Below, piece by piece: positions 2-61,550 of a stretch of 63,935 nucleotides of DNA. The translations under genes and the position numbers were made by a program. Each line of letters opens with the position of its first letter. Position 1 is the stretch's first letter. Source of the stretch: a virus (lineage: Duplodnaviria > Caudoviricetes). The DNA is taken from positions 1-63,935 of the IMG/VR virus record IMGVR_UViG_3300036793_000016; one strand, written 5' to 3'. The notes beneath the pieces are model-generated. The model saw nothing but the letters and a program-made list of their open reading frames with translations. It had not been told where the DNA came from and searched no databases.

Positions 2-556
2 GACATCGAGCAGCTCTCGACGCAGTACCCGAGCCTCAAGACCCTCGCCGCGCCGCCTGGAAAGGCTCAGCAGCGGTCATGGGTGGCTGCCTTCACCACT
101 CGGCCCGAGGCGCTGGAGACGATGCTCAGCGACCTGATCAAGCAGGCGTACGCCAAGCCGGGTCGAATCGGCCAGCGACCCATGCCTAAGGAGGAGGAGG
201 TCAACCTCCACGCCCTCCTGCATGGCGAGTACACCGACGAGTCGTTGGTCGACGTGCTGACCAAGCTGGTGCCGCCCGGTCGACACAAGCAGTTCTGCGA
301 GCGCATCTTCATGAGCCGCCGCATGTACCAGCGGATGTTCTTGCCGGATCGGCACGCCGACAAGTACCACCCGGACATGAGCGACATCGAGCGGATCGCC
401 TCGGCGCTCAAGAAGCCCGCGAGCTTCTTCCTGGAGTACCGGCTCATGGCTGCCCAGGCCGCATTCGTGCGGCTGATCACCGATAAGCCCGTCATAGCCA
501 CTCGTCTGTACCGGGACTACCTGGAAGTGAGCAAGCAGAGCCCCTTCCTGCGGTAG
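2..556 (+). CDS. 5'-truncated putative HTH (XRE-like) DNA-binding protein
   Basis: Frame is open from base 2 (DIEQLSTQYPSLK...) into ORF 83..556; segment PDMSDIERIASALKKPASFFLEYR resembles the C-terminal half of an XRE HTH. Confidence 0.55.
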   Translation, partial: DIEQLSTQYPSLKTLAAPPGKAQQRSWVAAFTTRPEALETMLSDLIKQAYAKPGRIGQRPMPKEEEVNLHALLHGEYTDESLVDVLTKLVPPGRHKQFCERIFMSRRMYQRMFLPDRHADKYHPDMSDIERIASALKKPASFFLEYRLMAAQAAFVRLITDKPVIATRLYRDYLEVSKQSPFLR

Positions 557-605
557 CTGAACACTCGGTGTGGGCATACACGGCTATGACGAGAGGAGGA
601 AACAG

Positions 606-761
606 ATGTTCATCCTTGGAGTCGTGCTGCTGATTCTCGGATTCTTGTTCGGGATCGGCCTGCTGTGGACGCTCGGCATCATCCTGATCGTGCTCGGGGC
701 CGTGCTGTACCTGCTCGGCGCTGCGGGCCACGCGATCGGCGGGCGCAACCACTACTGGTAA
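606..761 (+). CDS. Small two-TM membrane protein (DUF6131-like, actinobacterial)
   Basis: GAGGAGGA RBS then ATG 606; MFILGVVLLILGFLFGIGLLWTLGIILIVLGAVLYLLGAAGHAIGGRNHYW. Confidence 0.75.
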   Translation: MFILGVVLLILGFLFGIGLLWTLGIILIVLGAVLYLLGAAGHAIGGRNHYW

Positions 762-779
762 CTGGACCTGGAAACGCGA

Positions 780-822
780 AACGCCGGGCCGTGGAGAGCG
801 AATCATCCACGAGCCCGGCGTT
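780..822 (+). terminator. Long hairpin, probable terminator
   Basis: AACGCCGGGC/GCCCGGCGTT plus inner GTGGA/TCCAC, just after the stop codon. Confidence 0.55.
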
Positions 823-896
823 CTGCATCACCCGATGTCCCAACCACGGAACACTGACCTGCAACCGCACCCGAACAGCCGAACGCTAGCAAACCC

Positions 897-925
897 TTGA
901 CCTCTACGCAATGTCCACTTACGGT
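897..925 (+). promoter_or_regulatory. SigA/HrdB-type promoter of the RNA operon
   Basis: TTGACC(897-902)-N17-TACGGT(920-925); predicted +1 near G933 coincides with the start of a 16-bp stem. Confidence 0.7.
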
Positions 926-932
926 CGCTGGC

Positions 933-1027
933 GGCGACCGGGCATGGACGGGCATGGAAGAACCCTTGGTCCACGGCCTGTAGTGGGTCGACTTGGGAAA
1001 GTCAGTGGACATCCATGCTCGGTCGTC
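933..1027 (+). ncRNA. Candidate structured ncRNA, domain 1
   Basis: 16-bp stem 933-948/1012-1027 enclosing stem 969-974/1005-1010 with two hairpins (one GGGA tetraloop). Confidence 0.6.
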
Positions 1028-1040
1028 TTAGCCTGATCTA

Positions 1041-1149
1041 GCTCGGAAACGAGCAGCCAGGTGGGAGAGTGGGCCACTGGCGGTGACTGGAGAACAGTCG
1101 CGCCCGTCACGCGGGGCGACGAAGGTCCGGGAGACCGCGATCCCCTGGT
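1041..1149 (+). ncRNA. Candidate structured ncRNA, domain 2
   Basis: GCTCG-GAAA-CGAGC hairpin; closing stem 1056-1066/1141-1149 around three further hairpins; ends 3 nt before tRNA-fMet. Confidence 0.5.
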
Positions 1150-1152
1150 CAA

Positions 1153-1226
1153 CGCGCAGTGGAGCAGCTCGGTAGCTCGGGGGACTCATAATCCTCAGGT
1201 CGTGGGTTCAAATCCCACCTGCGCAA
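1153..1226 (+). tRNA. tRNA-fMet (CAT), initiator type
   Basis: Cloverleaf; loop CTCATAA; C1xA72 mismatch, A11-U24; T-loop TTCAAAT; no encoded CCA. Confidence 0.92.
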
Positions 1227-1347
1227 CGAGTAGGAGGCGGGTAGAGACCCGCTGGCCAAACTCCGCGAGGCCCCTTATACGGCCATCGACTCCAATCGGT
1301 GGAACAACCAGTCGGGGGGTTTTTGTCTGGTGCAGGGCGATTGATGG

Positions 1348-1418
1348 TGGTCGGTAGTTCAACGGCAGGACGGCGCCTTCTGAGGGCGTAGGTGCGGGTT
1401 CGATTCCCGCTCGACAAA
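1348..1418 (+). tRNA. Atypical tRNA, anticodon CTG (Gln)
   Basis: D-stem GTTC/GGAC, anticodon stem GCGCC/GGCGT with loop TTCTGAG, T-arm GCGGG-TTCGATT-CCCGC; acceptor stem has G2xA71 mismatch. Confidence 0.7.
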
Positions 1419-1440
1419 TGCCATCAACCCTGTGCTGCAA

Positions 1441-1513
1441 TGGCTTGTAGCTCAGTCGGCAGAGCGGCGGATTGTTAATCCGCAAGTCCCTGGTTCGAGT
1501 CCAGGCGGGCCAG
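1441..1513 (+). tRNA. tRNA-Asn (GTT)
   Basis: Canonical cloverleaf, loop TTGTTAA, U1-A72, G73. Confidence 0.95.
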
Positions 1514-1515
1514 CA

Positions 1516-1614
1516 CCGTGGGTGATGGGTTCAGTTCATGGCTGATCGCCTAGTTGTCCAGCGCACGGCTTCGGCACGGCGTCCTGGAACGGAGTTTCAA
1601 TAGCTCGCCCACGG
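1516..1614 (+). ncRNA. Candidate cloverleaf-like ncRNA between tRNA-Asn and tRNA-Ala
   Basis: 10-bp closing stem CCGTGGGTGA/TCGCCCACGG with three internal hairpins, one capped by cUUCGg. Confidence 0.5.
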
Positions 1615-1618
1615 GTAA

Positions 1619-1691
1619 GGGGACGTAGCTCATCAGGTAGAGCGCCGCTTTTGCAAGGCGGATGTGGCAGGTTCGAGTCCTGTCGTCTCCA
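1619..1691 (+). tRNA. tRNA-Ala (TGC)
   Basis: Cloverleaf, loop TTTGCAA, G3.U70 alanine identity pair, A73. Confidence 0.95.
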
Positions 1692-1699
1692 CGCAGCAT

Positions 1700-1771
1700 T
1701 GGGAGCTGGGGTAATCGGCAGCCCGCGAGGTTCTGGCCCTCGTCGTCCAGGTTCGAGTCCTGGGTTCCCAG
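1700..1771 (+). tRNA. tRNA-Gln (CTG)
   Basis: Cloverleaf, loop TTCTGGC, U1-A72, G2-C71, G3-C70, G73. Confidence 0.93.
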
Positions 1772-1797
1772 CCTCTCATTCAACCCGAGCTTGACCG

Positions 1798-1826
1798 TTG
1801 CCTCGGCGTCCCCACCGGGCTATGTT
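1798..1826 (+). promoter_or_regulatory. Possible SigA-type promoter for the vWA gene
   Basis: TTGCCT-N17-TATGTT. Confidence 0.4.
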
Positions 1827-1864
1827 CGGATTTCCTCCAACCACGGAATAGGAATGGGACAGCT

Positions 1865-2533
1865 ATGACCAGTCAGCAGACGGAACCATCGGTCAACGAC
1901 CTCAGCCCGATGTTTAAGACGGGCGTCGAAAAGGAGCCGATCTTCCTGATCGACACCAGCGGCTCGATGAGCTGGCCCAACACCGAGGGCGGCGCAGCGC
2001 GCTACGTGATCCTGGGTGAGGCGATCGGCAACCTCGTCGGCGCGCTCGAAGGTCTCGACAGCCAGGCCGCGCACGAGAAGGAAGCAGGCGAGGACGCTGG
2101 CGGCGTCATGACCGTGCTGTTCTCGGACAAGACTGAGGTGCTCGGCGACCTCAGCTCGGCGAACGTGAAGCAGAAGTGGGACTCGATCGCCTGGGGCGGC
2201 GGCACCATCATCCAGCCCGGCTGGGACGCCGTGATCGAGAACTACATGGAGGAGTTCGGCGACACCCCGAAGCAGGACCGTCCGCACCTGCTCGCGGTCA
2301 TCTTCACCGACGGCGAGGCCAACGACACCGACGCCTTCGCCTCGACGATCGCCAAGTCGCAGGGTGGCACCTACGCGCTCATCGTGATCATGGGCTACGG
2401 GCCCGAGCACGACCGGGCGCTCCAGGTCTACCAGGACATCACCAAGCAGAACGATCACGTCCGCGTGGTCACGTTCGGCAACGAGACCGACCCGAAGGTG
2501 ATTGCAGACGGCCTGCTGTCAATGGTCGGCTAG
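1865..2533 (+). CDS. von Willebrand factor A (vWA) domain protein
   Basis: MIDAS motif FLIDTSGSM, GGT, VIFTDGEAN. Confidence 0.85.
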   Translation: MTSQQTEPSVNDLSPMFKTGVEKEPIFLIDTSGSMSWPNTEGGAARYVILGEAIGNLVGALEGLDSQAAHEKEAGEDAGGVMTVLFSDKTEVLGDLSSANVKQKWDSIAWGGGTIIQPGWDAVIENYMEEFGDTPKQDRPHLLAVIFTDGEANDTDAFASTIAKSQGGTYALIVIMGYGPEHDRALQVYQDITKQNDHVRVVTFGNETDPKVIADGLLSMVG

Positions 2534-2549
2534 GTAGCAATCCCGCCCC

Positions 2550-2584
2550 GGTGCCCCGCTTCATCCAGACTGGAGCGGGGCACC
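2550..2584 (+). terminator. Hairpin terminator
   Basis: GGTGCCCCGCTTCA/TGGAGCGGGGCACC after the vWA stop. Confidence 0.65.
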
Positions 2585-2603
2585 GCATGTCTGGGGAACC
2601 ATC

Positions 2604-3011
2604 GTGATCGCAGAGATTGTGGACGGCCTGCTCGGTGCCGGTGTCGGTGCCGTAGTGGGTCGTCTATCCAGGCGCAAGACGCCATCCGTGCCAACTGATC
2701 CGCCGCCCATCTGCGGCTGCGGTGACAACTACGCCCTGCACGATCCGACCACGCGGATGTGCTTCGGCACCAGGCGGCAGAGCGTCTACAACAAGCCGAC
2801 CGCGAGCTACTACGACGAGACGGTGCAGTGCCCGTGCCGCCAGTACGTGGGGCCGATCCCAGTCGACAGCTTCACCTCAATGCCGGTCTCATGGGGCACC
2901 CCGGTGGACACATCGAAACAGACGCCCGTCCAAAAGCCAGTTCAGCGTCCAGCACCGACCGTCTCGAAGCGCAAGACGCAGAAGGGCGACCCCGACTACG
3001 GTCCACCCTGA
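2604..3011 (+). CDS. Membrane-anchored Cys/His-rich hypothetical protein
   Basis: N-terminal hydrophobic helix; CGCGDNYALHD...C...CPCRQYVGP. Confidence 0.65.
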   Translation: MIAEIVDGLLGAGVGAVVGRLSRRKTPSVPTDPPPICGCGDNYALHDPTTRMCFGTRRQSVYNKPTASYYDETVQCPCRQYVGPIPVDSFTSMPVSWGTPVDTSKQTPVQKPVQRPAPTVSKRKTQKGDPDYGPP

Positions 3012-3084
3012 GCAATCTGAACATCCGTCCTCTGTTCATCCTGAGGCTCTGGATTCGTTCATATTCGTCAGCGACTCTCGCAGT

Positions 3085-3456
3085 GTGTCTGAGGGGCGTC
3101 ATCGTCGCGTAGCCGGTCAACATCGGCGCGATGTCGGGCAGCATCGCTACGTGGCACCCAAGCTGCCATCAGTCGCACCGCACCCCAGCCATGTGCCCCG
3201 GCGCGCATTGTTCACTCTTGCTGGGATCGCTGGACTCGCAGCGGCCAGTACCGTGTCGCCGGGATCGGCAGGGGCGTCGACCCACGAGGTTGAGCGTCGT
3301 TTCAAACACTGGCATGACCACCCAGATCGACATCCACCGAAACCCGTCGCGCCACTCGCCATTCCAGCCGACCTACCTGCCGACGCCACAATGAAGCAGA
3401 TCGTCGCCGCCCTCAATAGTCTGTCGGCCTACCTCCGGAGCGAGGGCGCGTCGTAA
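3085..3456 (+). CDS. Hypothetical protein with twin-arginine-like signal (start uncertain)
   Basis: 3' part of ORF 2722..3456; in-frame GTG at 3085; PRRALFTLAGIAGLAAAS...AGA. Confidence 0.45.
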   Translation: MSEGRHRRVAGQHRRDVGQHRYVAPKLPSVAPHPSHVPRRALFTLAGIAGLAAASTVSPGSAGASTHEVERRFKHWHDHPDRHPPKPVAPLAIPADLPADATMKQIVAALNSLSAYLRSEGAS

Positions 3457-3510
3457 AACCGACGAACATCCATTCCCTCTCTCGCGTCGTCCAGGCGATA
3501 TGGTTTCAAC

Positions 3511-4128
3511 ATGGGTCTGTTGAACGATCTCGGGCTGAAATACGACGCCGATAAGAGTTCCCGCTTCCACAACTACCTCGACTTCTACGAGCAGCACCTG
3601 CCCGACCGAAACTTCGCGGGCAGGCTCCTGGAGATCGGGATCATGGATGGCGTCAGCATGAAGATGTGGGCCGAGTTCTACCCGAAGGCCGAGATCGTCG
3701 GCATCGACGTGGTGGACAAGGAGCATCTCTACAACGACGACTGGCAGCTACCCAGGAGCATCAAACTGCTCACGCTCGATGGCACCAAGGCCGAGGACGT
3801 GCGACCGCTCGGCATGTTCGACATCATCATCGACGACGGCTCGCACTTCACCGCCGACCAGCAGGCCAGCTTCGAGCTGCTCTACTACGACCAGCTCAAC
3901 GAGGGCGGCATCTACATCGTCGAGGACATCTGGACCAGCCGTATGACGCAGTACGTCAACTCGGAGCTGGACATGTTCGATTGGTTGGAGAAGAAGGGCA
4001 TCACAGCGACCGTCTTCAAGCACGAGCACAACGGCATCGGCAGCATCGTGTTCCCGGAGTACCCCGAGTACAAAGACCTCGGCAGCGAGACGGCGCTGAT
4101 CCGAGCTGGCCAGAAAGGGATGGCATGA
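3511..4128 (+). CDS. Class I SAM-dependent methyltransferase (sugar O-methyltransferase-like)
   Basis: DK..FHNYLDFY, LLEIGI, IVGID, FDIIIDDGSH, GGIYIVED. Confidence 0.85.
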   Translation: MGLLNDLGLKYDADKSSRFHNYLDFYEQHLPDRNFAGRLLEIGIMDGVSMKMWAEFYPKAEIVGIDVVDKEHLYNDDWQLPRSIKLLTLDGTKAEDVRPLGMFDIIIDDGSHFTADQQASFELLYYDQLNEGGIYIVEDIWTSRMTQYVNSELDMFDWLEKKGITATVFKHEHNGIGSIVFPEYPEYKDLGSETALIRAGQKGMA

Positions 4129-4775
4129 CGATCTTTGTGGCGAATCAGAGCAAGCGCGTGTCGGACGCCGACGTGCGTGCCATGACTGCGGCCTGCGACA
4201 GTCAGGTCTTCTATCACGCAGCCCCGCTGTACGGGTACAAGCCGCGTCGCGTGCAGTTCACTGCCGATCCGAAGTCGATCACGAGCGACGCGCTGATCAT
4301 CGTGGCCGACACTCCGGACGAAGCCAACGCCCTCGGTTGGCACTCGGAGCAGGCCAGTGGCCAGTCCTACGGCTTCGTTTTCGCTGCGCCCGTACTCGAC
4401 AACGGCGGCGACGCGCTCTACAACACCAACGTCTCGGTCTCCTCGGTGCTCAGTCACGAGGTGCTGGAGACTTGCCTGAATCCAGGTGTGAACGTCAGCG
4501 CCGACGATGGGCAAGGCTGGCTCTGGGCTTACGAGGTGTGTGATCCGGTCGAGGGTGACAGCTACCCGATCTACTCCAAGATCATGGTCAGCAACTTCGT
4601 CCTTCCGGCGTTCTTCGACCAGGCAGGCAAGGGTCGCGTCGACTTCATGGGCACCGCGCCGGGGCCGTTCAGGCTCGCTCGGCATGGATATGCCGCTCGT
4701 CAGGCGAGCACCGGGAAGCAGGCGGAAATCTTCGGCGACCAGTACATCCCTTGGTACAACGGGGCCAAGGGCTAA
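4125..4775 (+). CDS. Hypothetical protein, possible zincin-like metallopeptidase
   Basis: ATGA overlap with upstream stop; ALGWH, VLSHEVLE, YEVCDPVE motifs. Confidence 0.6.
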   Translation: MTIFVANQSKRVSDADVRAMTAACDSQVFYHAAPLYGYKPRRVQFTADPKSITSDALIIVADTPDEANALGWHSEQASGQSYGFVFAAPVLDNGGDALYNTNVSVSSVLSHEVLETCLNPGVNVSADDGQGWLWAYEVCDPVEGDSYPIYSKIMVSNFVLPAFFDQAGKGRVDFMGTAPGPFRLARHGYAARQASTGKQAEIFGDQYIPWYNGAKG

Positions 4776-4804
4776 TCGGTTGACTCCTCACCTATGGTGA
4801 ACAC

Positions 4805-4843
4805 ATGACCTTCCGCTCCTGGCGACCGCGACCTCTCATCTGA
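4805..4843 (+). CDS. Putative leaderless leader peptide MTFRSWRPRPLI
   Basis: TATGGT(4793-4798)-N6-ATG; stop overlaps hairpin 4842-4869; directly upstream of tRNA-Trp and tRNA-Pro. Confidence 0.45.
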   Translation: MTFRSWRPRPLI

Positions 4844-4873
4844 GTGCAGTCGCTCGCGGCGCTGCGCTCGTAA

Positions 4874-4946
4874 TGGGGCGTAGCCAAGCGGCCAAGGCAG
4901 CGGCTTCCAAACCCGTCATTCGTCGGTTCGAGTCCGACCGCCCCAG
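4874..4946 (+). tRNA. tRNA-Trp (CCA) with a Gln-like body
   Basis: Cloverleaf, loop TTCCAAA, C31xC39 mismatch, U1-A72, G73. Confidence 0.85.
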
Positions 4947-4967
4947 CAGAATCGCGCGCAGTGCCAC

Positions 4968-5041
4968 CGGGATGTGGCGCAACTTGGTAGCGCAGCGGCT
5001 TTGGGAGCCGATGGCTGGGGGTTCAAATCCCTCCATCCCGA
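4968..5041 (+). tRNA. tRNA-Pro (TGG)
   Basis: Cloverleaf CGGGATG/CATCCCG, loop TTTGGGA, A73. Confidence 0.93.
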
Positions 5042-5104
5042 CACGATGATGAACTCATAGGGACGTGCGTTCCTATTCACCGATGCAAGGGCTATGGTGA
5101 CTCT

Positions 5105-5671
5105 GTGGCCGACCCGATCACGCGGGGCGAGTACGAATCCCTCTTGCTCACCCCAGGCGAGAAGTACATCCTGACCCAACTACGCAAGGAGATTCGATCG
5201 CTCATGTCCGCACTCACTGACCAGGTAGATGCAGCACTCGCGCTGCTCGCCACCGAGACCAGTGGCCTCCAGGGTGTCATCGACGCGCAGAACGCTGCCG
5301 CCGCTGTCCTCCAGGCAGCCCTCACCGCATCGCAGGCCAACGAGGTCGCCGACGAGGCCGAACTCCAGAAGGCTCTCGACGCTCTGAACCAGGCCAACGC
5401 CGCGCTGGCCGGTCTCCAGTCGAGCACCCCGACCACGCCGGTGGACCCGACGACTCCAGTCGACCCCACCACGCCGACCACTCCGGTCGACCCCACGACT
5501 CCCGTGGACCCGACGACCCCGACCGATCCGACCACTCCGGACCCGACCACTCCGGACCCGACCACCCCGGTCGACCCGACCACGCCGGACTTCCCGGCAA
5601 CCCCGGACCCAACGACTCCGGACCCGACCACGCCGGACCCGACCACTCCGGACGCGCCGACCGTCGTCTAG
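5105..5671 (+). CDS. Coiled-coil protein with C-terminal Pro/Thr/Asp repeats
   Basis: Ala/Leu/Gln-rich heptads then [11 protein letters not shown] repeats; alternative ATG at 5204. Confidence 0.75.
5429..5652 (+). repeat. Coding tandem repeats (15-18 bp units)
   Basis: Repeated CCGACCACTCCGGAC / CCGACCACGCCGGTGGAC units. Confidence 0.85.
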
Positions 5672-5685
5672 TCCTCGCGGCTGCA

Positions 5686-5715
5686 CAGCCCTCGTACCTT
5701 CGGGTGCGGGGGCTG
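5686..5715 (+). terminator. UUCG hairpin terminator
   Basis: CAGCCCTCGTACC-TTCG-GGTGCGGGGGCTG. Confidence 0.7.
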
Positions 5716-5752
5716 CTTGCATTTATATGGACGCGCGTCCGAACATAGAGGT

Positions 5753-7444
5753 ATGGCCGTCCTTGAAGCGTTGAGCGATGAAGAGAAGTACCTCGTCGCC
5801 ATCCTCCAGGACAGCTCAGGTGTCGACATCGCGGAGTTCCTCTGGCGCGACCCGGACCAGAAGGACAACCTGTTCCGCTGCTACGACTTCCAGATTCCCT
5901 GGTATCGCAACGACGCCAAGCAGCAGATCGACCAGTGCGCTCGCGCCATCGGAAAATCGGTGGGCATCCAAATGCGCGCCTTCGCCTTCCCGTTCTGCAA
6001 CCCCGGCAACGACATGCTCATCACGGCGCCAGAGATGATCCACCTCGACCCGGTGACCAAGAACATCGAGGACCGGCTCATGAGCACCCGTCTCTCCAGG
6101 GAGATGCTCAAGTCGGGCAACCAGTCGACCGGCATCACGCACCGCCCGTTCGAGGCGAAGTTCCGCAACGACGCCAAGATCATTGGCCGCATCCCGCAGA
6201 AGGACGGCAAGGGCGTCAAGGGTATGCACCCTCGGATGCTGGAGATGGACGAGGCGCAGGACTACCCCGCCGCTGGCTGGGTGGAACTGGTCGAGACCCT
6301 GCGCTTCGGCGACGAGACCTCACGTTGGCGGGCCCACGGCGTCTCCCGAGGCGTGCGCGACCACTACTACAAGCTCAGCCAGTCTGACGACTGGTACGTG
6401 CACCGCATCACCGCCATGCACCGGCCCGACTGGACCGACCAGGAGCGTAAGAGCAAGGCCGAGCTGTACGGCTCCAAGGAGCACCCGGACTACCGGCGCA
6501 ACATCCTGGGCCTGCACGGCGACGCGATGTCGAGCCTGTTCGTGCTGCACCGCCTCATGGCCTGCGTCGACTCGAACGAGAACTCGCCCTACAACACCCA
6601 GACCTACCAGCACATCCGCATCAACGACGAGTGGCTGCGCGACTCCGGGATGCCCATCGAGGCGCTTATCGACCTCCCAGGCGCCCACAAGTCGTTCAAG
6701 CGCGTCTGGATTGGGATGGACGTCGGTATGACCAACCACCCGTCCGAGATTCTGGTCTTCGGTGCCGAGAACAAGCCGGGCAAGAAGATCGGCGAGAAGG
6801 ACTCGGGCGAGCGGCTGCGGTGCCTGACCCGCATCCACCTGGAGCGCATCTCGGCGATGGACCAGCTCGCGGTCATGAACTTCCTGGCCGAGTTCTACGA
6901 GCCGCTGGCCTTCGGCATGGACCGCACCGGCCTGGGCCTGCCGATCTTCCAGACCGCGCAGTCGGGCGAGGGCAGCAACCACTGGCTCCAGAAGTCGATC
7001 CGTGGCTACAACTTCTCGGAGAAGATCACCGTCGGCTTCGAGCCTGCTCCCGAGGACGAGATGGAGTGGGTGGCGCCCGAGGACCGGGCCATCATGGGCA
7101 ACGTCCTGGAGTACAGCTCGGACCAGCTCCGGCTCCTCGTCGACCAGGGCGGGCTCGTGCTGCCGTGGGACATCGACATGCTCCGCGAGTTCCAGGGCCA
7201 GGCGTACTACATCAGCAAGTCAGCGACGAACCCGTATGGCAAGAAGGAGTTCAACAAGGGCAAGTTCCACGCTCTTGACGCCGCTCGGATGGCTGGCCTC
7301 GCCTACAGCCAGGAAGCGGTGGAGAAGATGCTCAAGCTCATGCCCGATCAGAGCAGCGTCATGCTCGCCTGGGCAGCCGAGGACGACTATGCCGGTGCCG
7401 TCAGTGGCGGCGGGTACGCCGACCCTATGTTCAGCGACTGGTGA
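5753..7444 (+). CDS. terL: Terminase large subunit
   Basis: Walker A-like CARAIGKS, Walker B LEMDEAQD, nuclease motifs IGMDVG, MDRTGLG, HALDAARM; first gene of the virion module; GAGG RBS before ATG 5753. Confidence 0.88.
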   Translation: MAVLEALSDEEKYLVAILQDSSGVDIAEFLWRDPDQKDNLFRCYDFQIPWYRNDAKQQIDQCARAIGKSVGIQMRAFAFPFCNPGNDMLITAPEMIHLDPVTKNIEDRLMSTRLSREMLKSGNQSTGITHRPFEAKFRNDAKIIGRIPQKDGKGVKGMHPRMLEMDEAQDYPAAGWVELVETLRFGDETSRWRAHGVSRGVRDHYYKLSQSDDWYVHRITAMHRPDWTDQERKSKAELYGSKEHPDYRRNILGLHGDAMSSLFVLHRLMACVDSNENSPYNTQTYQHIRINDEWLRDSGMPIEALIDLPGAHKSFKRVWIGMDVGMTNHPSEILVFGAENKPGKKIGEKDSGERLRCLTRIHLERISAMDQLAVMNFLAEFYEPLAFGMDRTGLGLPIFQTAQSGEGSNHWLQKSIRGYNFSEKITVGFEPAPEDEMEWVAPEDRAIMGNVLEYSSDQLRLLVDQGGLVLPWDIDMLREFQGQAYYISKSATNPYGKKEFNKGKFHALDAARMAGLAYSQEAVEKMLKLMPDQSSVMLAWAAEDDYAGAVSGGGYADPMFSDW

Positions 7445-30479: not shown

Positions 30480-30509
30480 TCGCGGGGGTTGGGAGACCAG
30501 CCCCCGCGA
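30480..30509 (+). terminator. Hairpin terminator
   Basis: TCGCGGGGGTTGG-GAGA-CCAGCCCCCGCGA. Confidence 0.7.
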
Positions 30510-30552
30510 CGTGGTGAGGACTGGAACCCGGACTAGCTGAGGAGTTGTCGCT

Positions 30553-31790: not shown

Positions 31791-34700
31791 GTGGCGACCA
31801 ACGACTTCTATCTGAACTTCGGCTCGGACGCCAACCCCTTCGCCAAGGAGCTAGCGACCGAGCTGGCTCCCGGTATTGCCCAGATCAACGCGCTCACCGA
31901 GGCGATCCTCAAGTACGACGAAGCGGTCGGCTCGCTGCACACCGGCAACCCGCTCGGCAACCTATTCGGCCAGCTCGATCAGGCCAGCGCCAAGCTGGAG
32001 TCGATCGGCGGGGAACTCGGCACCGCGTTCGAGAAGATCACCACCTCGCTCGGCACCCTGACCGGCCAGCTTCGTGGTGCGCTCACCGAGATCAGTCAGG
32101 CCACTCGTGCGGCTGCCGACGCGGGCAAGGTCAAGCCACCGCCGCCACGGACGCAAGCGACTCAGGTCACCGATGAGGAGCTGAGCCCGGCCAAGCTCGC
32201 GCAGACCCAGCGCACCGTCGCCGTCGCCACGACCAACGGCGATGCCGCTCGCAACGCCGTCAAGCGTGTCGCCGACATCAATGCCACCCTGGCTCGCAAC
32301 GCCGCCGACTCTGCCGACCAGCTCATCAAGCTCGGCGAGGCCATCCGCTCCCTGACCACGATGACCAAGGTCAGCACCAGGGGCGTCACCGAGGGCCGGT
32401 TCCAGCAGAACACCGTCTACGTGCAGGGCGGTGGAGCAAGTGCCGAGCATCTCGGCAACGTCAGTCCCGCCGTGGTGCAGGCCGTCCTTGCCCAGGCTGG
32501 TATCCAGGAAGCCCAGCAGGCGCCCGTCCGCGATCAGGCGCACCAGGCTCAGCGCGACGCCTCCGACGCCCAGCAGCGAGCCCAGCAGCTAGAGCGTGCC
32601 GGGTTCACCGCTGCCGCGCAGCCGGGTCTCTACCAAGTGCCGGGCGAGACCGCGACGCGCACGGTCACCAACCGGATCAACCCCGGCGAGTCCTTCGACG
32701 ACTACTTCGCGCGGGTGGCCAGTAACACCCAGGGGCTCAACCGCATCCGGCAAGAGGTCGTCCAGCGCAGCGAGTCCCGCGTAGGCATCCAGGGCAGCCA
32801 GGACATCCAGGATGTCCAGCGGCTCATCGGTCGACGTGGCCTGGAGACCCTCAGCGGGCCCGAGCACGCGGCGCTCAACGATGGCCGGACGCCGGGCTCG
32901 ATCCCGACTTCGACAATAAGGGCGTCCGTCCAAAGCGTTCTAGGTCCGTCGAACGCGCTGACCCCTGAACAATATGCACTCGTTCCGCAGGCCCTGGCTG
33001 AGTTCAAGGCGATGCAGGCGGACTTCGCCGCGTTGGCCAAGAGTGATGTGGCCTCGCGGATCAGCGCCAACCCTGCCGAGACCTTCGCCTTCGCCCCCGA
33101 GCGGGCGCCCACCGAGGCGACCACCAAGGCGGGCCGGGCTCGCGGTCTTGGTCTTTCCGATCCCTTCGGCCAGGTGCAGGACTACCGGGCTGCGGTCAGC
33201 GAGTACGACCTGGCCAACCCCGACAACCCCGGCGTCGGCGTCCGTGCTGCCGCCGAGGAGCGGATCGCCAACGGTCGGGCCAATTCTCGCGCCTACCGCC
33301 CGCTCAATGACGGGCTCAACGTCCGTCCCGAGACCGTGGTCATCGGCGACACAGGCCGGGCGCCCAAGGCTCCCGCCGACACCACGGCCAAGTACGACCA
33401 GATGGTCGAGCAGGAGATCGCCGCCGCCCGTGAGGCACGGCAAGCTGCCGAGGAGTCCGGGCAGGCTGCGGTCAAGATCACCGAGGCGGCGACCAAGCTC
33501 GAAGAAGTTGCCAGCGGTGGTGGTCGCGGGCCCCGTCCTCCTCGTCCTCCGCGTCCACCAGCAGGCGGCTCAGAAAATGAGCAGCCAGAAGAAGAACCGA
33601 CGGGCGTCAGTTCTCCGCGTGCCACGCGCCGGGGTCAGCCGTACCCGACTCCGGAGTCCTCGCCGAAGGTGGCCGAACTCCAGGCCGCACTGGATGAGAA
33701 CACGCGAGCCGTCCTGGAGGATGTCAAGGCCAAGCTGCCGGGACTCACCGGCAATGCACGGGCCGCTGAGATCGAGCGGGCCGGTACCGCGTTCGCCGCC
33801 GACCCGGCGTTCGGCAACATCGAGGGTGGTGTCCGAAACCAGCGTCGCTCGCTCGGTGGTCTGCTCGGACTGAACACAGGTGGCGCGGACTACCAGACCC
33901 TCGGCAACGTCCTGGGTGCTCAGGGCAGTGGCACGGCGCAACTGCTCGGTGGCCGGTCCAACGTCTCGGAGACCCAGCAGGCGGCTGAGGCCGAGGCGCG
34001 CTACGCGGCTGCCCTGGCTGAGACCGAGGGCAAGACGGTCGCCGAGACCAACGCGATCCTTCGCCGGTTCAAGGCACAGGAGCAGCTCAACGCGGCCAAC
34101 GCCCAGGGCAGCACGCTCCAGCGGGCATCGGCTCAGATCGGTCTCAACAACGCCGACGAGGACTTGTCCAAGACCCGTGCCAGCATCTCGGCTAGGAACA
34201 CCCCGCAGACGCTCCAGCAGGGACTGTTCGGTCAGGCTGGATTCGCGCAGAACCAGCTCCGCCACGTCGGCCTCGGGCTCGAAAACGTAGTTGGATACAC
34301 GTTAGTTTTCACGGGCTTCGACAAGCTCCAGGAACTGGCGCACACCGGCCTGGAGTCTGACGCGGCATTCGTGCGGCTCCAGGCGTCCTTGGAGGCCAAC
34401 GGGATCGCAGCGGGCAACCTGCGCACCCAGCTCGCTGGCATCTCGGCCAGCACCGCGACGCCCTTGCAGCACACCATCGAGGCCGCGTCCGAGCTGGCCG
34501 GTGTCTTCAACAACGCCGCTGACCTGGCCTTCGGCACGAAGATCGCTGCCCAGCTCGCCAACATCAGTCAGGGCACGCTCACCGCCAAGGAGGCGGCGGT
34601 CGGCCTGCGGGATGTCATCGACGCCTACGCCCAGGACTGGGCAGCGGCGGGCGTCTCGGCCAAGGACGCGATCCAGCAGACCGGCGATGAGGTCGCTCGG

Positions 34701-37700
34701 CTGTCGCAGACCACGGGTGTCGGCGTCAAGGACATCCTGGAAGGCACCACTCAGTTCGCCCAGGAAGCGCACGACTATCACCTGGACCAGAACCAGGCTG
34801 CCACCATCGCGGCCTACGCGAGCCGGGCGACTGGTGAGACCGGCGAGCAGTCGGCGTCGCAGGCGTCTCGATTCCTGGCCACGCTGCGCAACCCGAAGCT
34901 CCAGCAGATTCTGACGACCACCCAAGTTCCTGGCGAGCGCGGTGCCAACGGCGCTCCGGTCACCGTGGCCTCGGCCCAGCAGTTCGCCAGCGGTGACATC
35001 TCGGGCGTCCTGACGAGCCTGCTGACCAACTTCGACAAGCTCACCCCGTCTTCCCAGGCGGCAATCCAGCAGATCGCCGGTGTCGGCATCCAGGCGCGTG
35101 TCTTCTCCGCGATCATGCACGACGGCACGACGATCTTGCAGCAGTTCACCGACGCTCAGAACGCGGCTGGTGCCCTGGCCAAGCAGAACGCGAGCTACCT
35201 GCACACCGTTGCGGGCGAGATCAAGCAGTTCGACGAGGACTTCCAGAACCTCGGCAACACCCTGACTCGGCTCGGTGCCTTCGACTCGATCGGCCTGTTG
35301 GCCAAGGCGGCTGACGATCTGGTCAAGGCGTTCTCGGCGTTCTTCAACCTGATCGCCGACTTCGCCGACTCGAACCCGTTGACCAAGGCGCTCCTCCCGG
35401 CCCTCGTGGTGACCGGCGAGCTGGCCGTGGCGTTCAAGCTCCTTGCTGGCGTGGGGGCGTCTGTCTTCGGCAGGGCCGGTCTCCTTACTGCGGTCAACGC
35501 AAGCTCGGTTGGCAGCCCGGTCATCGGTGCTGGCGGGGTGGCCACCGGCGAACTTGTCGCGGCGCAGTACGGTCGACTTAGCCCAGGCCGCATCCTCAAC
35601 GGCACCCTCGGGGCCGGGGCTCGGGTCACGGCTTCCGATGTCGCCACCCGCGAGGAGCAAGTCCTCAGTCGCGGTGGTCTACGCGGTGTCGCGGGATCGG
35701 TTATTGGCCTACCCGGTCGGGCCTACCGGTCGGTCAGCGGTGGAATCAGTGGCATCGCTGCTGAGCAGCGCGCATCGTTCGTCGCCTCCGAGGCGTCGCG
35801 CATCGAGGCCGAGCAGGCTGCCGCTGGCTTCCGGTACAACTCGGCGGGCCGCGCGGTCAGCACGACCGGCATCGGCAGCTTCGTTCCCGTCTCCAGTATT
35901 CCGGAGAACCTCCGGGGCACGCCCGCTTCGCTGGCCGAGGAGTCCACTCAGAGTGCCGCGCGCCGCATCGGCGCCGTGGCTGGCGATGTAGGCACTCGCG
36001 GTGTCGGCGCACTGGAGAAGGGCCTCAACAGCAGCCTCGGCAAGATGATCGGTCTCGGTGCCGCACTGGCGGTCGTCGGCGTGGTCGCGGATCAGATCAT
36101 GGCCGCGCGAGCGCAGGACAAGGCCGACCAGAAGACCGGTCAGATCACCTTGGGAACCCTTGACGGAACCCAGGCGGCGAAGGACGCGGCAGCGAAGGCC
36201 AGCGCGGCGACGGGGACCAATGCCGACCCGTTGAGCGCGATTCAGCAGGCGGGAAAGCGGGCTGGCTCGGCGGGCGGTTTCGCCACGTTCGGCTCGCGGA
36301 TCATCTCCGGCGACGTGACGGCGACCGACGGGTTCCAGGGCGTCAGCGACAAGTACAGCAACGACTACATCAAGCTGGTGCTGAGCCAGAACAAGGCCAT
36401 CCGCGCGCTGCCCAAGGACGCCAGCGTCGATGACATCAACGCGGCCAAGGCTGCCAGCGACAAGGACTTCCAGAACCAGGTCGACGGGCTCGTCAAGGAG
36501 GCGGGCAACAAGAACAACCAGACCCAGGCCATTGCTGAGCTGGCCACTCTCAAGGAGCGGACGGACGAGTCCTACGCCAAGCGGCTCCTTGTCGCCCAGG
36601 GGCTGAGCGGGCTCGACGCGCTCAACGCCACCCAGGTCGGTCAGCTCGGCACCTACTACGCGCAGCTCAGTCAGTACAACAACAAGACGCTCTCCGAGAT
36701 TCAGGGGCTCAACCAGTCGCTCCAGCAAGACCTCGGACTGACGCCCGGCTCGGCGGCGGACAAGCAGAGCAAGATCGCACTCGGCCTGCCGGGATCGACC
36801 CAGCCTGCCTACACCGACGGCACGACCACCAACGCCGAGCACGCTCAGACGATCCTCCCGACCGACCAGGAGCGTCGGGACGCCGAGATCGCCAGCATCA
36901 AGTTGGGCCTGGCTCAGGACGCGACTCGACTGGCCGATACGACGGGGCAGTACGCGACCGGTGGCAAGGGCTCGGCCCGTGAGGCGTTGCAGCAGCAGGA
37001 CGCTCAGCAGGCCCAGCTTCTCCAGCAGTTGCAGACCCAGAACGACACGGTTGCGGTCAACCTGCCGCAAACGCAGGCGACGAACGCACTCAACGTCGGC
37101 AACACCGCCGACGCGGTGAAGTACCTGAATCAGACCAAGACGGCACTCCAGGCTCTGATTGCACCCGGTGGCACGTACGACTCCAGCCAGAAGGAGTATT
37201 ACGACACCCTGGCTCAGATTCAGGATGCGCAACTCAAGCTCGCCCAGCTCAAGTACCAGGAGTCGACCGACGCTGCGGCCCTCGAAGCAGCGGGTAGCAA
37301 CGACGCGGCGACCAAGGCTCGGGACGCGCAGATTCAGGCCAACAACAACCTCCAGGCGGCGAAGGACGCCGGACTCCAGGGAACGGCTCTGGCGCCGTAC
37401 CAGCAAGCTCAGGCGGCGGCAGACCTCGGCGCGCGCTCGACGCAGCAGTCGATCACCCAGGCGCAACTCGGCGCGCAGTTCGCAGGCGTGCGCAGCGGCA
37501 CCGGGCAGGCTCGGGCCGCGATCACCGAGGCGGCACAGCGCGAGAATGCCTACCGGGGTGGTGGGTCACTCGCTGATCAGGCCAGCTACTACGCGGCGGT
37601 GCAGTCCTACACCCAGGCGCAGGCTCAGTTGCGTGATGCTCTGGAGGCCGACGCGCAGGGTGCCTACGACGCTGCCTCGGCGATTCAGAAGCTGCACGGC

Positions 37701-38516
37701 GACGAGGTGGGTGCGGCGCAGACCGCGTACGCCAAGGCGCAGGCCAACTACACCTACCAAGTCAAGGAGTACGGACAGAACTCCGCGCAGGCTGAGGCTG
37801 CCTTCGCGTCGACTATCCAGGCCCAGCAGGCGGTCCAAGCTGCCGCGCTCGCGCAGATCACGGCGGGTCTGGACTTGGAGATCGCCGAGCTGAACGCTCG
37901 CGGCGTCGGGCAGGGTGGTGACGCTGGCCAGGCGGCGGCGGGTGTCGCGGTACAGAAGGCTCAGGCTGCCCTCAACAGCTACCAGGCTGCGGGTGGTCAG
38001 ACCGGCACGGCGCAGAGCGATCAACTGCAAGCCGCTCTCGTCACGGCCCAGCGCAGCCAGTTCGACACCGCGCTCAACGCCCAGCTCGACACGCTGGACT
38101 TCCAGAAGCAGACGTACCAGATCACCGGTGCACAGGAGGTCGCGGCTCTCCAGCAGATTCTCCAGAACAAGCAGCTCACGCTGGCTGAGCAGCGCAACAT
38201 CACCTTGAAGATCAAGGGGTTGCAGGACGACATCCGCAACCAGCTCACCTCGGGCGGTCTCAACATCCCGTCCGACATCAAGCTGCCCACGGCCTATGAC
38301 GTGCGGCGCTCGCTTGGTGCTGGCTTCGCGGGCAATGCGACCTCGACCAGCGTGGTCAACAACAACCAGCAGGCCACGGTCACGGTCAACCAGACGCTGC
38401 CGAACGCGGCACTGGCGGCGGCGGTGGCTGCCTCGGTGATCGCCCTGCTCAACCAGCAGACCGGCCAGCAGGTGCGGGCCAACTCCGCGACACCACGACT
38501 CGTGCCGACGGGCTGA
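31791..38516 (+). CDS. Tape measure protein
   Basis: 2241 aa, Ala/Gln-rich helical, follows the frameshifted chaperone. Confidence 0.9.
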   Translation: MATNDFYLNFGSDANPFAKELATELAPGIAQINALTEAILKYDEAVGSLHTGNPLGNLFGQLDQASAKLESIGGELGTAFEKITTSLGTLTGQLRGALTEISQATRAAADAGKVKPPPPRTQATQVTDEELSPAKLAQTQRTVAVATTNGDAARNAVKRVADINATLARNAADSADQLIKLGEAIRSLTTMTKVSTRGVTEGRFQQNTVYVQGGGASAEHLGNVSPAVVQAVLAQAGIQEAQQAPVRDQAHQAQRDASDAQQRAQQLERAGFTAAAQPGLYQVPGETATRTVTNRINPGESFDDYFARVASNTQGLNRIRQEVVQRSESRVGIQGSQDIQDVQRLIGRRGLETLSGPEHAALNDGRTPGSIPTSTIRASVQSVLGPSNALTPEQYALVPQALAEFKAMQADFAALAKSDVASRISANPAETFAFAPERAPTEATTKAGRARGLGLSDPFGQVQDYRAAVSEYDLANPDNPGVGVRAAAEERIANGRANSRAYRPLNDGLNVRPETVVIGDTGRAPKAPADTTAKYDQMVEQEIAAAREARQAAEESGQAAVKITEAATKLEEVASGGGRGPRPPRPPRPPAGGSENEQPEEEPTGVSSPRATRRGQPYPTPESSPKVAELQAALDENTRAVLEDVKAKLPGLTGNARAAEIERAGTAFAADPAFGNIEGGVRNQRRSLGGLLGLNTGGADYQTLGNVLGAQGSGTAQLLGGRSNVSETQQAAEAEARYAAALAETEGKTVAETNAILRRFKAQEQLNAANAQGSTLQRASAQIGLNNADEDLSKTRASISARNTPQTLQQGLFGQAGFAQNQLRHVGLGLENVVGYTLVFTGFDKLQELAHTGLESDAAFVRLQASLEANGIAAGNLRTQLAGISASTATPLQHTIEAASELAGVFNNAADLAFGTKIAAQLANISQGTLTAKEAAVGLRDVIDAYAQDWAAAGVSAKDAIQQTGDEVARLSQTTGVGVKDILEGTTQFAQEAHDYHLDQNQAATIAAYASRATGETGEQSASQASRFLATLRNPKLQQILTTTQVPGERGANGAPVTVASAQQFASGDISGVLTSLLTNFDKLTPSSQAAIQQIAGVGIQARVFSAIMHDGTTILQQFTDAQNAAGALAKQNASYLHTVAGEIKQFDEDFQNLGNTLTRLGAFDSIGLLAKAADDLVKAFSAFFNLIADFADSNPLTKALLPALVVTGELAVAFKLLAGVGASVFGRAGLLTAVNASSVGSPVIGAGGVATGELVAAQYGRLSPGRILNGTLGAGARVTASDVATREEQVLSRGGLRGVAGSVIGLPGRAYRSVSGGISGIAAEQRASFVASEASRIEAEQAAAGFRYNSAGRAVSTTGIGSFVPVSSIPENLRGTPASLAEESTQSAARRIGAVAGDVGTRGVGALEKGLNSSLGKMIGLGAALAVVGVVADQIMAARAQDKADQKTGQITLGTLDGTQAAKDAAAKASAATGTNADPLSAIQQAGKRAGSAGGFATFGSRIISGDVTATDGFQGVSDKYSNDYIKLVLSQNKAIRALPKDASVDDINAAKAASDKDFQNQVDGLVKEAGNKNNQTQAIAELATLKERTDESYAKRLLVAQGLSGLDALNATQVGQLGTYYAQLSQYNNKTLSEIQGLNQSLQQDLGLTPGSAADKQSKIALGLPGSTQPAYTDGTTTNAEHAQTILPTDQERRDAEIASIKLGLAQDATRLADTTGQYATGGKGSAREALQQQDAQQAQLLQQLQTQNDTVAVNLPQTQATNALNVGNTADAVKYLNQTKTALQALIAPGGTYDSSQKEYYDTLAQIQDAQLKLAQLKYQESTDAAALEAAGSNDAATKARDAQIQANNNLQAAKDAGLQGTALAPYQQAQAAADLGARSTQQSITQAQLGAQFAGVRSGTGQARAAITEAAQRENAYRGGGSLADQASYYAAVQSYTQAQAQLRDALEADAQGAYDAASAIQKLHGDEVGAAQTAYAKAQANYTYQVKEYGQNSAQAEAAFASTIQAQQAVQAAALAQITAGLDLEIAELNARGVGQGGDAGQAAAGVAVQKAQAALNSYQAAGGQTGTAQSDQLQAALVTAQRSQFDTALNAQLDTLDFQKQTYQITGAQEVAALQQILQNKQLTLAEQRNITLKIKGLQDDIRNQLTSGGLNIPSDIKLPTAYDVRRSLGAGFAGNATSTSVVNNNQQATVTVNQTLPNAALAAAVAASVIALLNQQTGQQVRANSATPRLVPTG

Positions 38517-58588: not shown

Positions 58589-58640
58589 GAGATGCAGAGG
58601 GGGCGCTGCCTCGACCGCAAGCGCCCCCTCACAGCATCTC
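58589..58640 (+). terminator. Long hairpin after the SSB gene
   Basis: GAGATGC.GAGGGGGCGCT / AGCGCCCCCTC...GCATCTC. Confidence 0.6.
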
Positions 58641-61323: not shown

Positions 61324-61550
61324 TCCACCCCGAGTCGGCGCGGCTCAGCGAAGACGAGCTTCGTCAGCGGATGCGCAAGGTGATATTGCCCAACCCGCTG
61401 ATCCACGTCGGCCCGGCGTACCCGATCCAGACCTTCGAGCACTGGGATAACCCCTACCCCGGCTACTACCACGGCGCTGTCGTCGTGGTGGATAGCTGGC
61501 TCGGCGAGGAGGTCTGGGTCGAGGAGCGTGCTCAGACTATGAGCAGCTAG
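61320..61550 (+). CDS. Hypothetical protein
   Basis: ATGA overlap, 76 aa. Confidence 0.55.
   Translation: MIHPESARLSEDELRQRMRKVILPNPLIHVGPAYPIQTFEHWDNPYPGYYHGAVVVVDSWLGEEVWVEERAQTMSS

Follow-up and report, generated by a model that had tools for sequence, protein, structure and literature searches.

What is the 95-nt segment at positions 933 to 1027 of this phage DNA, whose two ends are complementary to each other and which lies between two promoter-like sites, upstream of a tRNA gene? The window that we analysed is an entire IMG/VR virus record (IMGVR_UViG_3300036793_000016; 63,935 nt; estimated 43% complete; G+C 63.7%). An earlier note, made from its sequence, had taken the segment to be either a discrete small RNA or a switch. 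Our analysis points elsewhere: the element is most likely not a new kind of small RNA and is best understood as a protective leader between tandem promoters.

The + strand of the window carries every gene-like open reading frame that passes the GC3 filter, together with all seven tRNAs predicted by ARAGORN. The large terminase is encoded at 5717-7444, and we read the frame at 31791-38516 (2,241 aa) as the tape-measure gene from its size and position. Further genes code for glycosyl- and methyltransferases, a PD-(D/E)XK nuclease and a class II ribonucleotide reductase. The nearest deposited phage, judged by the best TerL match, has a terminase of 40% identity. The sole sequencing run containing the full stretch is labelled soil metagenome and may be the source sample; three other runs cover the tRNA-Met part only, and the runs listed as containing the stretch include none recorded as RNA. 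Our guess for the host is a soil bacterium of high G+C, possibly an actinobacterium.

About 5 kb (557-5716) separate the large terminase from a terminase-associated gene (2-556) and constitute a hyperplastic insertion site, with a DUF6131 protein, the seven tRNAs, a VWA protein (1865-2533), a methyltransferase-like protein and others. We collected 55 related loci anchored on TerL; the VWA protein used as an anchor yielded none. In 16 of the 22 related loci that strongly match the terminase-associated gene, this gene and the large terminase are at most 85 nt apart, and gaps between the two are seen in L002, L003, L006, L014, L020 and L026. Upstream of the terminase in a further relative of 144 kb, L018, there is a tRNA with the anticodon CUA (6605-6677; ARAGORN; labelled Pyl, amber-suppressor type).

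The element itself sits on the coding strand in a 390-nt gap without genes. The gap is preceded by the DUF6131 membrane-protein gene (606-761, + strand), a family matched in none of 14 control genomes. GC3 across the gap is flat in the three frames (0.62-0.64, as against at least 0.79 in genes that pass the GC3 filter), and by the same measure a 41-aa frame at 911-1036 was rejected as a gene (GC3 0.50). After the DUF6131 gene, RNA folding predicts a terminator-like hairpin (779..822, + strand) with a counterpart in the same place in L002 (6630-6667). This hairpin is devoid of a U-tract and is unreported by a simple terminator scan; it probably ends upstream transcription, as judged from the modelled fold. 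Downstream, the tRNA array includes, besides tRNA-Met, two tRNA-Gln (CUG) genes (1348-1418 and 1700-1773), and its spacers of about 100 nt (1515-1618 and 1774-1864) display moderate folding.

As predicted by RNAfold, the element (933..1027, + strand) has three parts: a 16-bp terminal stem, a 20-nt asymmetric loop (949-968) and a three-way junction. In the terminal stem GGCGACCGGGCATGGA (933-948) pairs with TCCATGCTCGGTCGTC (1012-1027) through 16 contiguous pairs, of which two are G.U pairs (G934.U1026 and G941.U1019). Both the sequence and the fold bear out this stem as the earlier note had drawn it, and RNAfold also recovers the asymmetric loop and the three-way junction that it had placed inside. 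The junction is formed by helix P2 (969-974/1005-1010, + strand; GUCCAC/GUGGAC), hairpin P3 (975-989, + strand; GGCCU-GUAGU-GGGUC) and hairpin P4 (990-1003, + strand; GACUU-GGGA-AAGUC, in which GGGA is a GNRA loop), with A1004 as its sole unpaired base. The middle hairpin is present as the note had it, except that its 6 bp and triloop become 5 bp and a pentaloop in RNAfold, which is a trivial difference.

The minimum free energy of the element is -49.7 kcal/mol, as against -33.2 +/- 3.3 kcal/mol in 200 dinucleotide shuffles (z -4.97), none of which folds as well. The pairs of the terminal stem have probabilities of 0.84-1.0, and the fold persists within the longer folded contexts 933-1152 and 762-1152. 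The reverse complement reaches -40.8 kcal/mol with a similar z of -5.23; it is weaker by about 9 kcal/mol because the G.U pairs turn into A-C mismatches. Across the whole record, taken at a step of 8 on both strands, 40 of 15,960 segments of 95 nt attain -49.7 kcal/mol or lower, and these are mostly plain hairpins or coding sequence rich in G+C. Several near-perfect tetraloop hairpins of 11-19 bp at or near gene ends (5686-5715, ~30480-30515, ~61459-61500 and ~58589-58640) rank with the most stable segments of this length in the record and are probably terminators. With G.U pairs allowed and a span of at most 160 nt, the window has one uninterrupted stem of at least 16 pairs on the + strand, that of the element, and four on the - strand. 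Twenty dinucleotide shuffles produce a mean of 0.5 such stems per strand and a maximum of 3. Hence, given the shuffles and the four stems of the - strand, the 16-bp stem alone is within genome-wide chance; it is the complete fold, together with its location in a gene-free gap of the coding strand, that is unusual.

A 9-nt word is duplicated in tandem as GGGCATGGA-C-GGGCATGGA (940..958, + strand), with one copy in the 5' arm (940-948) and the other in the loop (950-958). The duplication is present in the sequence just as the earlier note had reported it. The switch that it had envisaged through an alternative register does not hold up: pairing via the other GGGCATGGA copy yields -38.6 rather than -49.7 kcal/mol, i.e. 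11.1 kcal/mol worse, with a pair probability of 0.0. With this register essentially unpopulated and no aptamer family matching, an intrinsic two-state switch or riboswitch is unsupported; one driven by a bound factor is conceivable. In a different part of the window, a stretch at 2619-2667 (within the frame 2604-3011) contains ACGGCCTG and, at a distance of about 20 nt, GTAGTGGGTCG, two words that both occur in the middle hairpin of the element (973-990). This stretch forms its own 14-pair stem, and the common words could reflect chance or be a trace of common origin.

Does the element belong to a known class of RNA? At gathering scores Rfam finds only the seven tRNAs in the whole window. At E up to 10, a search of 760-1360 (601 nt) returns no match over 933-1027, and one of 925-1035 (111 nt) returns a sole match to mir-432 (11.7 bits, E 6.7). 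As far as the Rfam models reach, this excludes the following: SRP, Y RNA/YrlA, 6S, Ms1, riboswitches, ribozymes, GOLLD and ROOL. The SRP Alu, Y RNA/YrlA and 6S/Ms1 models, with which the earlier note had suggested comparison, are therefore all silent up to an E of 10. The UGUNR turn of the SRP Alu domain joins two helices, the loops of which pair with each other. The element has the word UGUAGU in common with this domain, but here the word lies partly in the loop of one hairpin (975-989) and partly beside it, and not between two helices; with no Rfam SRP match either, the suggested resemblance to the UGU turn is unsupported. With Y RNAs it shares the pairing of the 5' and 3' ends into a terminal stem, again without a covariance-model match. 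The 37 frames of the window that were scanned against Pfam include no TROVE/Ro gene, the VWA protein at 1865-2533 standing alone.

Several further classes were rejected on other grounds. A tRNA, tmRNA or tRNA-like structure is disfavored by ARAGORN, which reports the seven tRNAs, zero tmRNAs and nothing at 933-1027, and by the Rfam tRNA model, which is negative on 925-1035. An intrinsic terminator or attenuator does not fit: the stem is followed by UUAGCCUGAUC, not by a U-tract, and no + strand terminator is reported in 500-2000. PeSLs of T4-type phages are conserved motifs that recur within a genome. The element, considered as a MITE or another repeated mobile cassette, PeSLs included, is present as a single copy in the record and in 0 of 39 related records, and its flanks (...GCTGGC / TTAGCC...) are without duplication.

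Searches for homologues gave a consistent picture. In the 55 terminase-anchored loci blastn obtained one 25-nt match (E 0.29) and nhmmer zero. A covariance model, R1, which was built from the single sequence and is insensitive to distant relatives, recovered the window's own record as a positive control (120.6 bits); on the 55 loci only the window itself and plain hairpins scored, and on whole related viral records there were no matches (0/5 and 0/34, or 0/39). Nothing matched 880-1060 by blastn among 50,697 phage records. Among cultured phages, megablast of 560-1900 matched 46 nt of tRNA-Met only and tblastn of the upstream protein had zero matches. Three exact words of the element were found 0 times in IMG/VR viral contigs, as was one exact word in 185,579 species genomes. 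Such searches detect close relatives or relatives of the same architecture; within the databases searched, the element appears to be an orphan found in this phage alone.

The local arrangement of the window is seen in just two of the related loci, L002 and L003, whose terminase is 81% identical to that of the window and which are identical to each other in this region as aligned. The order common to all three is: the DUF6131 membrane protein, a hairpin, a non-coding stretch, tRNA-Met and a terminator-like hairpin with a U-tract. L002 and L003 keep the tRNA-Met unit without the element: the best local score of the element against the L002 stretch is 17, compared with a shuffle mean of 17.3. What they do conserve is a structured leader of 94 nt just 5' of tRNA-Met (1056..1149, + strand; 6985-7082 in L002). 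Its local alignment between the window and L002 scores 33 as against 18.4 +/- 2.7 for shuffles (0 of 200 as good), and the two copies adopt similar folds. Of 25 consensus pairs, 7 have changed on both sides with the pair kept, a count drawn from two sequences. This leader matches no Rfam family and is better supported as a functional RNA than the 95-nt element. Patterns made from the leader and the trailer re-found only the L002/L003 contigs among viral contigs; in species genomes they had four matches, none of which is beside a tRNA-Met and which we read as chance. Short contigs from two runs of a second study, X2 and X3, contain tRNA-Met with 5 differences in 79 nt (window 1152-1230). The tail 5' of their tRNA-Met includes GGGAGACCG, as in the leader of the window, a hint that more relatives exist.

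A non-standard first acceptor pair of the C1-A72 type is a mark of the bacterial initiator tRNA. The phage tRNA-Met (CAU; 1153..1227, + strand; ARAGORN; Rfam tRNA 60.6 bits, with the first pair flagged as non-standard) has C1-A72 as its first acceptor pair and is initiator-like by this feature. Initiators are expected to have three consecutive G-C pairs in the anticodon stem, of which the phage tRNA-Met has only two. The L002 copy has G1.U72. The trailer of the tRNA (1228-1326) is conserved with L002 7161-7245: it comprises a hairpin with a UAGAGA-containing loop and changed stem bases, followed by CTCCGCGAG, a terminator-like stem and UUUUGU. In the window this terminator-like site (1271..1326, + strand; RNA fold) is a CCCC...GGGGGG stem followed by UUUUUGU, alignable with the hairpin and UUUUGU of L002. 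The folded model suggests that it closes the tRNA-Met unit, a place where the simple terminator scan is silent.

Two sigma-70-like sites are found in the gap. The first, P1 (897..925, + strand), is TTGACC (897-902), 17 nt and TACGGT (920-925), with a predicted +1 at ~932/933. It is the sole match in the window to TTGACN-16..18-TANNNT, of which 0.84 are expected by chance. The second, P2 (1006..1034, + strand), is TGGACA, 17 nt and TAGCCT, with a predicted +1 at ~1041. A -10 core of the form TANNNT is typical of high-GC bacteria. A relaxed scan (TTGACA matched at 5 or more of its 6 positions, 16-18 nt of spacer, TANNNT) has three matches on the + strand of the 63,935 nt and none on the - strand, with 1.9 per strand in shuffles. 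Two of these three are P1 and P2, which are 109 nt apart in the 390-nt gap, where ~0.012 would be expected; these counts are for patterns of our own choosing, the relaxed one chosen after the first site had been seen. An E. coli-type consensus scan reports nothing at P1 or P2. In L002 the relaxed scan of 6300-7400 finds only a counterpart of P2 (TGGACA-17-TAATGT, 6948-6976), with an identical hexamer and spacing and an unrelated spacer sequence, and does not find P1. Thus, promoter P2, the leader and the tRNA are conserved and the element is not. Since L002 and L003 are without P1 and without detectable homology to the element, their sequences suggest that the tRNA-Met unit works without it.

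A structural feature recurs at the predicted starts: in three of three cases they lie at most ~2 nt from where a stem begins (P1, 933; P2, 1041; L002, ~6983-6985). For P1 this is the foot of the 95-nt element, so that the claim of the earlier note that the element begins at the first base after a plausible promoter is supported with respect to the predicted +1. For P2 it is a GCUCG-GAAA-CGAGC hairpin (1041..1054, + strand; RNA fold), which starts at the predicted +1, and in L002 the outer stem of the leader begins at 6985. A boxA-like word is absent from 760-1350 (a 13-nt E. coli boxA word, with up to 3 mismatches).

We propose, at a probability of roughly 40%, that the element is a lineage-specific 5'-clamping leader of the P1 transcript in a tandem-promoter operon of an initiator-like tRNA. 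The operon would have the order: P1, the element, P2, the GNRA hairpin, the conserved leader, the initiator-like tRNA-Met and the terminator. It would produce two transcripts, with the element as the 5'-terminal domain of the longer one. If P1 fires and transcripts start at ~933, their first 95 nt would fold immediately into a closed domain. The 16-bp stem would then leave zero unpaired 5' nucleotides, and neither RppH-type pyrophosphohydrolases nor 5'-end-dependent RNase E/J would act well on such an end. At the same time the additional 108 nt, being folded on themselves, would be less free to mispair with the conserved leader and the tRNA. Cleavage by RNase P at 1152/1153 would free the leader, and after 3' trimming the clamped hairpin might linger as a by-product.

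Several lines of evidence favor this reading of the element as a 5' clamp: the fold is strong and survives in longer contexts; it is stronger by ~9 kcal/mol on the + strand, the strand of the genes and tRNAs; the promoter-like sites cluster in the gap; each of the three predicted starts is at the base of a helix; and 5'-terminal pairing is an established stabilizer. On the last point, the part of PMC3997798 available to us describes RppH and RNase E as requiring single-stranded 5' ends, 5'-terminal pairing as stabilizing RNA, and B. subtilis RppH as requiring at least two unpaired nucleotides. It also counts in favor that the upstream hairpin and the conserved terminator-like site after the tRNA bound the gap and so delimit a short stable-RNA unit. 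The clamp reading is weakened, in turn, by the nearest relative having neither the element nor P1, by the fast processing of tRNA precursors, for which a stabilizing benefit is not obvious, by the chance occurrence of stems of at least 16 pairs at ~0.5 per strand, and by the promoter patterns being self-chosen and the E. coli-type scan silent.

The alternative that survives best, though we regard it as somewhat unlikely, is that the element is a DNA-level feature that has little, if any, function as RNA. In one version it is a lineage-specific inverted duplication, born of template switching or slippage, and the hypervariable spacer in which it arose precedes the conserved promoter P2. In the other it is a pair of protein-binding sites coupling P1 and P2, with one arm at +1 to +16 of P1 and the other in the P2 spacer. 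The layout of promoter P2 lends itself to such a reading: its spacer consists of the 3' arm of the 16-bp stem plus T1028, and its -35 is the 3' strand of helix P2, which covers most of the hexamer, plus A1011. Between a conserved GAACAG-type block and the -35, the window and L002 are non-homologous, which implies fast turnover, and the 9-nt tandem duplication and the lack of homologues in the 39 related records agree with such an origin. The reverse-strand z of -5.2 is likewise what any inverted repeat would give. L002 has its own, unrelated segment closed by 11 bp just upstream of the -35 (marginally better than shuffles: z -1.92; 3 of 200 as good), which counts among the points for a DNA-level origin but fits a clamping leader equally well. 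The interior, however, is more than a spacer separating repeats, as it folds into a compact three-helix junction with a GNRA loop, and 63 bp between the arms is unusual for an operator, for which we found no candidate protein. On the coding strand the two arm mismatches are G.U pairs, which also speaks against a DNA-level feature, if weakly, there being two events.

We consider it improbable that the element is a discrete phage small RNA acting in trans, made from P1, trimmed to the 16-bp stem and sequestering a host protein or nuclease as a decoy or sponge. Its closed-end architecture would strongly resist nucleases, and the GNRA loop and the 20-nt open loop could be bound. The tRNA cluster of T4 yields two small stable RNAs, species 1 and 2. 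Phages also place the non-coding RNAs GOLLD and ROOL beside tRNA islands, according to the portion of PMC12286853 at our disposal. Against this, position 1027 has neither a terminator nor a defined 3' end (UUAGCC comes next, with no U-tract), and hence the discrete 95-nt RNA of the earlier note finds no 3'-end signal, the sequence continuing into promoter P2, the conserved leader and tRNA-Met; there is no family match and no conservation even in the nearest relative. A more specific form, a 95-nt RNA with its ends locked in the 16-bp helix that is freed from the leader of the initiator tRNA and acts in trans, e.g. as a decoy for a host 5'-end-sensing nuclease or a tRNA-targeting defence protein, is a long shot.

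RNase III usually requires about two helical turns. A processing stem for an enzyme of this type, in which the 16-bp helix stacked on helix P2 is cut so that the leader-tRNA precursor loses its P1-specific 5' extension, would resemble the flanking stems of pre-rRNA and the hairpins of T7 early mRNA and would account for a stable-RNA operon beginning with a long, almost perfectly paired duplex, but sixteen pairs are short for the enzyme and the cut creates no needed end, RNase P already setting the 5' end of the tRNA, which makes this quite improbable.

If the element is indeed a clamping leader, the design is that of an ordinary operon, in which a phage tRNA gene has two transcripts and one of them bears a 5' clamp. 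The element would then be of value as another example of the small stable-RNA operons of uncultured soil phages, with tandem promoters and structured leaders. It would gain in importance if the hairpin accumulates as a stable RNA or if clamped leaders prove general in phage tRNA operons. In the latter case they would offer a handle on how phages protect their tRNA precursors from the ribonucleases of the host and from defences aimed at tRNA, or set these precursors out as bait. A better-supported by-product of this study is the covarying conserved leader at 1056-1149: it lies beside an initiator-like tRNA, has a relative available for comparison and is without an Rfam family.

Among known systems, the PeSLs are promoter/stem-loop cassettes of T4-type phages (PMC2839356 and PMC4122927, as far as the parts available to us go). 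The element likewise combines a promoter and a stem-loop in a hyperplastic phage region, but is single-copy in the 64-kb record and absent from relatives. The T4 stable RNAs, species 1 and 2, may be likened to it as non-coding RNAs beside phage tRNA genes. GOLLD and ROOL are again structured non-coding RNAs beside phage tRNA genes and probably co-transcribed with them, as the element would be. They are conserved families, and many GOLLD RNAs exceed 800 nt (PMC12286853, in the same portion), whereas the element is small, an orphan and matches neither Rfam model. Similar in presumed function are the 5'-terminal stabilizer hairpins of ompA and papA, which in the available part of PMC3997798 likewise have the stem at the first base, here a predicted one, and no single-stranded 5' end. 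The element differs from these hairpins in being far larger (16 bp closing a three-way junction), in preceding a tRNA rather than an mRNA and in being unconserved, and its protective role would be by analogy with them. Operons of rRNA and tRNA have tandem P1-P2 promoters. The present unit resembles these stable-RNA operons in its two sigma-70-like sites ~109 nt apart before a stable-RNA gene, of which only the downstream one is conserved in the relative; it departs from them in having no boxA-like word and in that its inter-promoter segment forms one closed hairpin domain.
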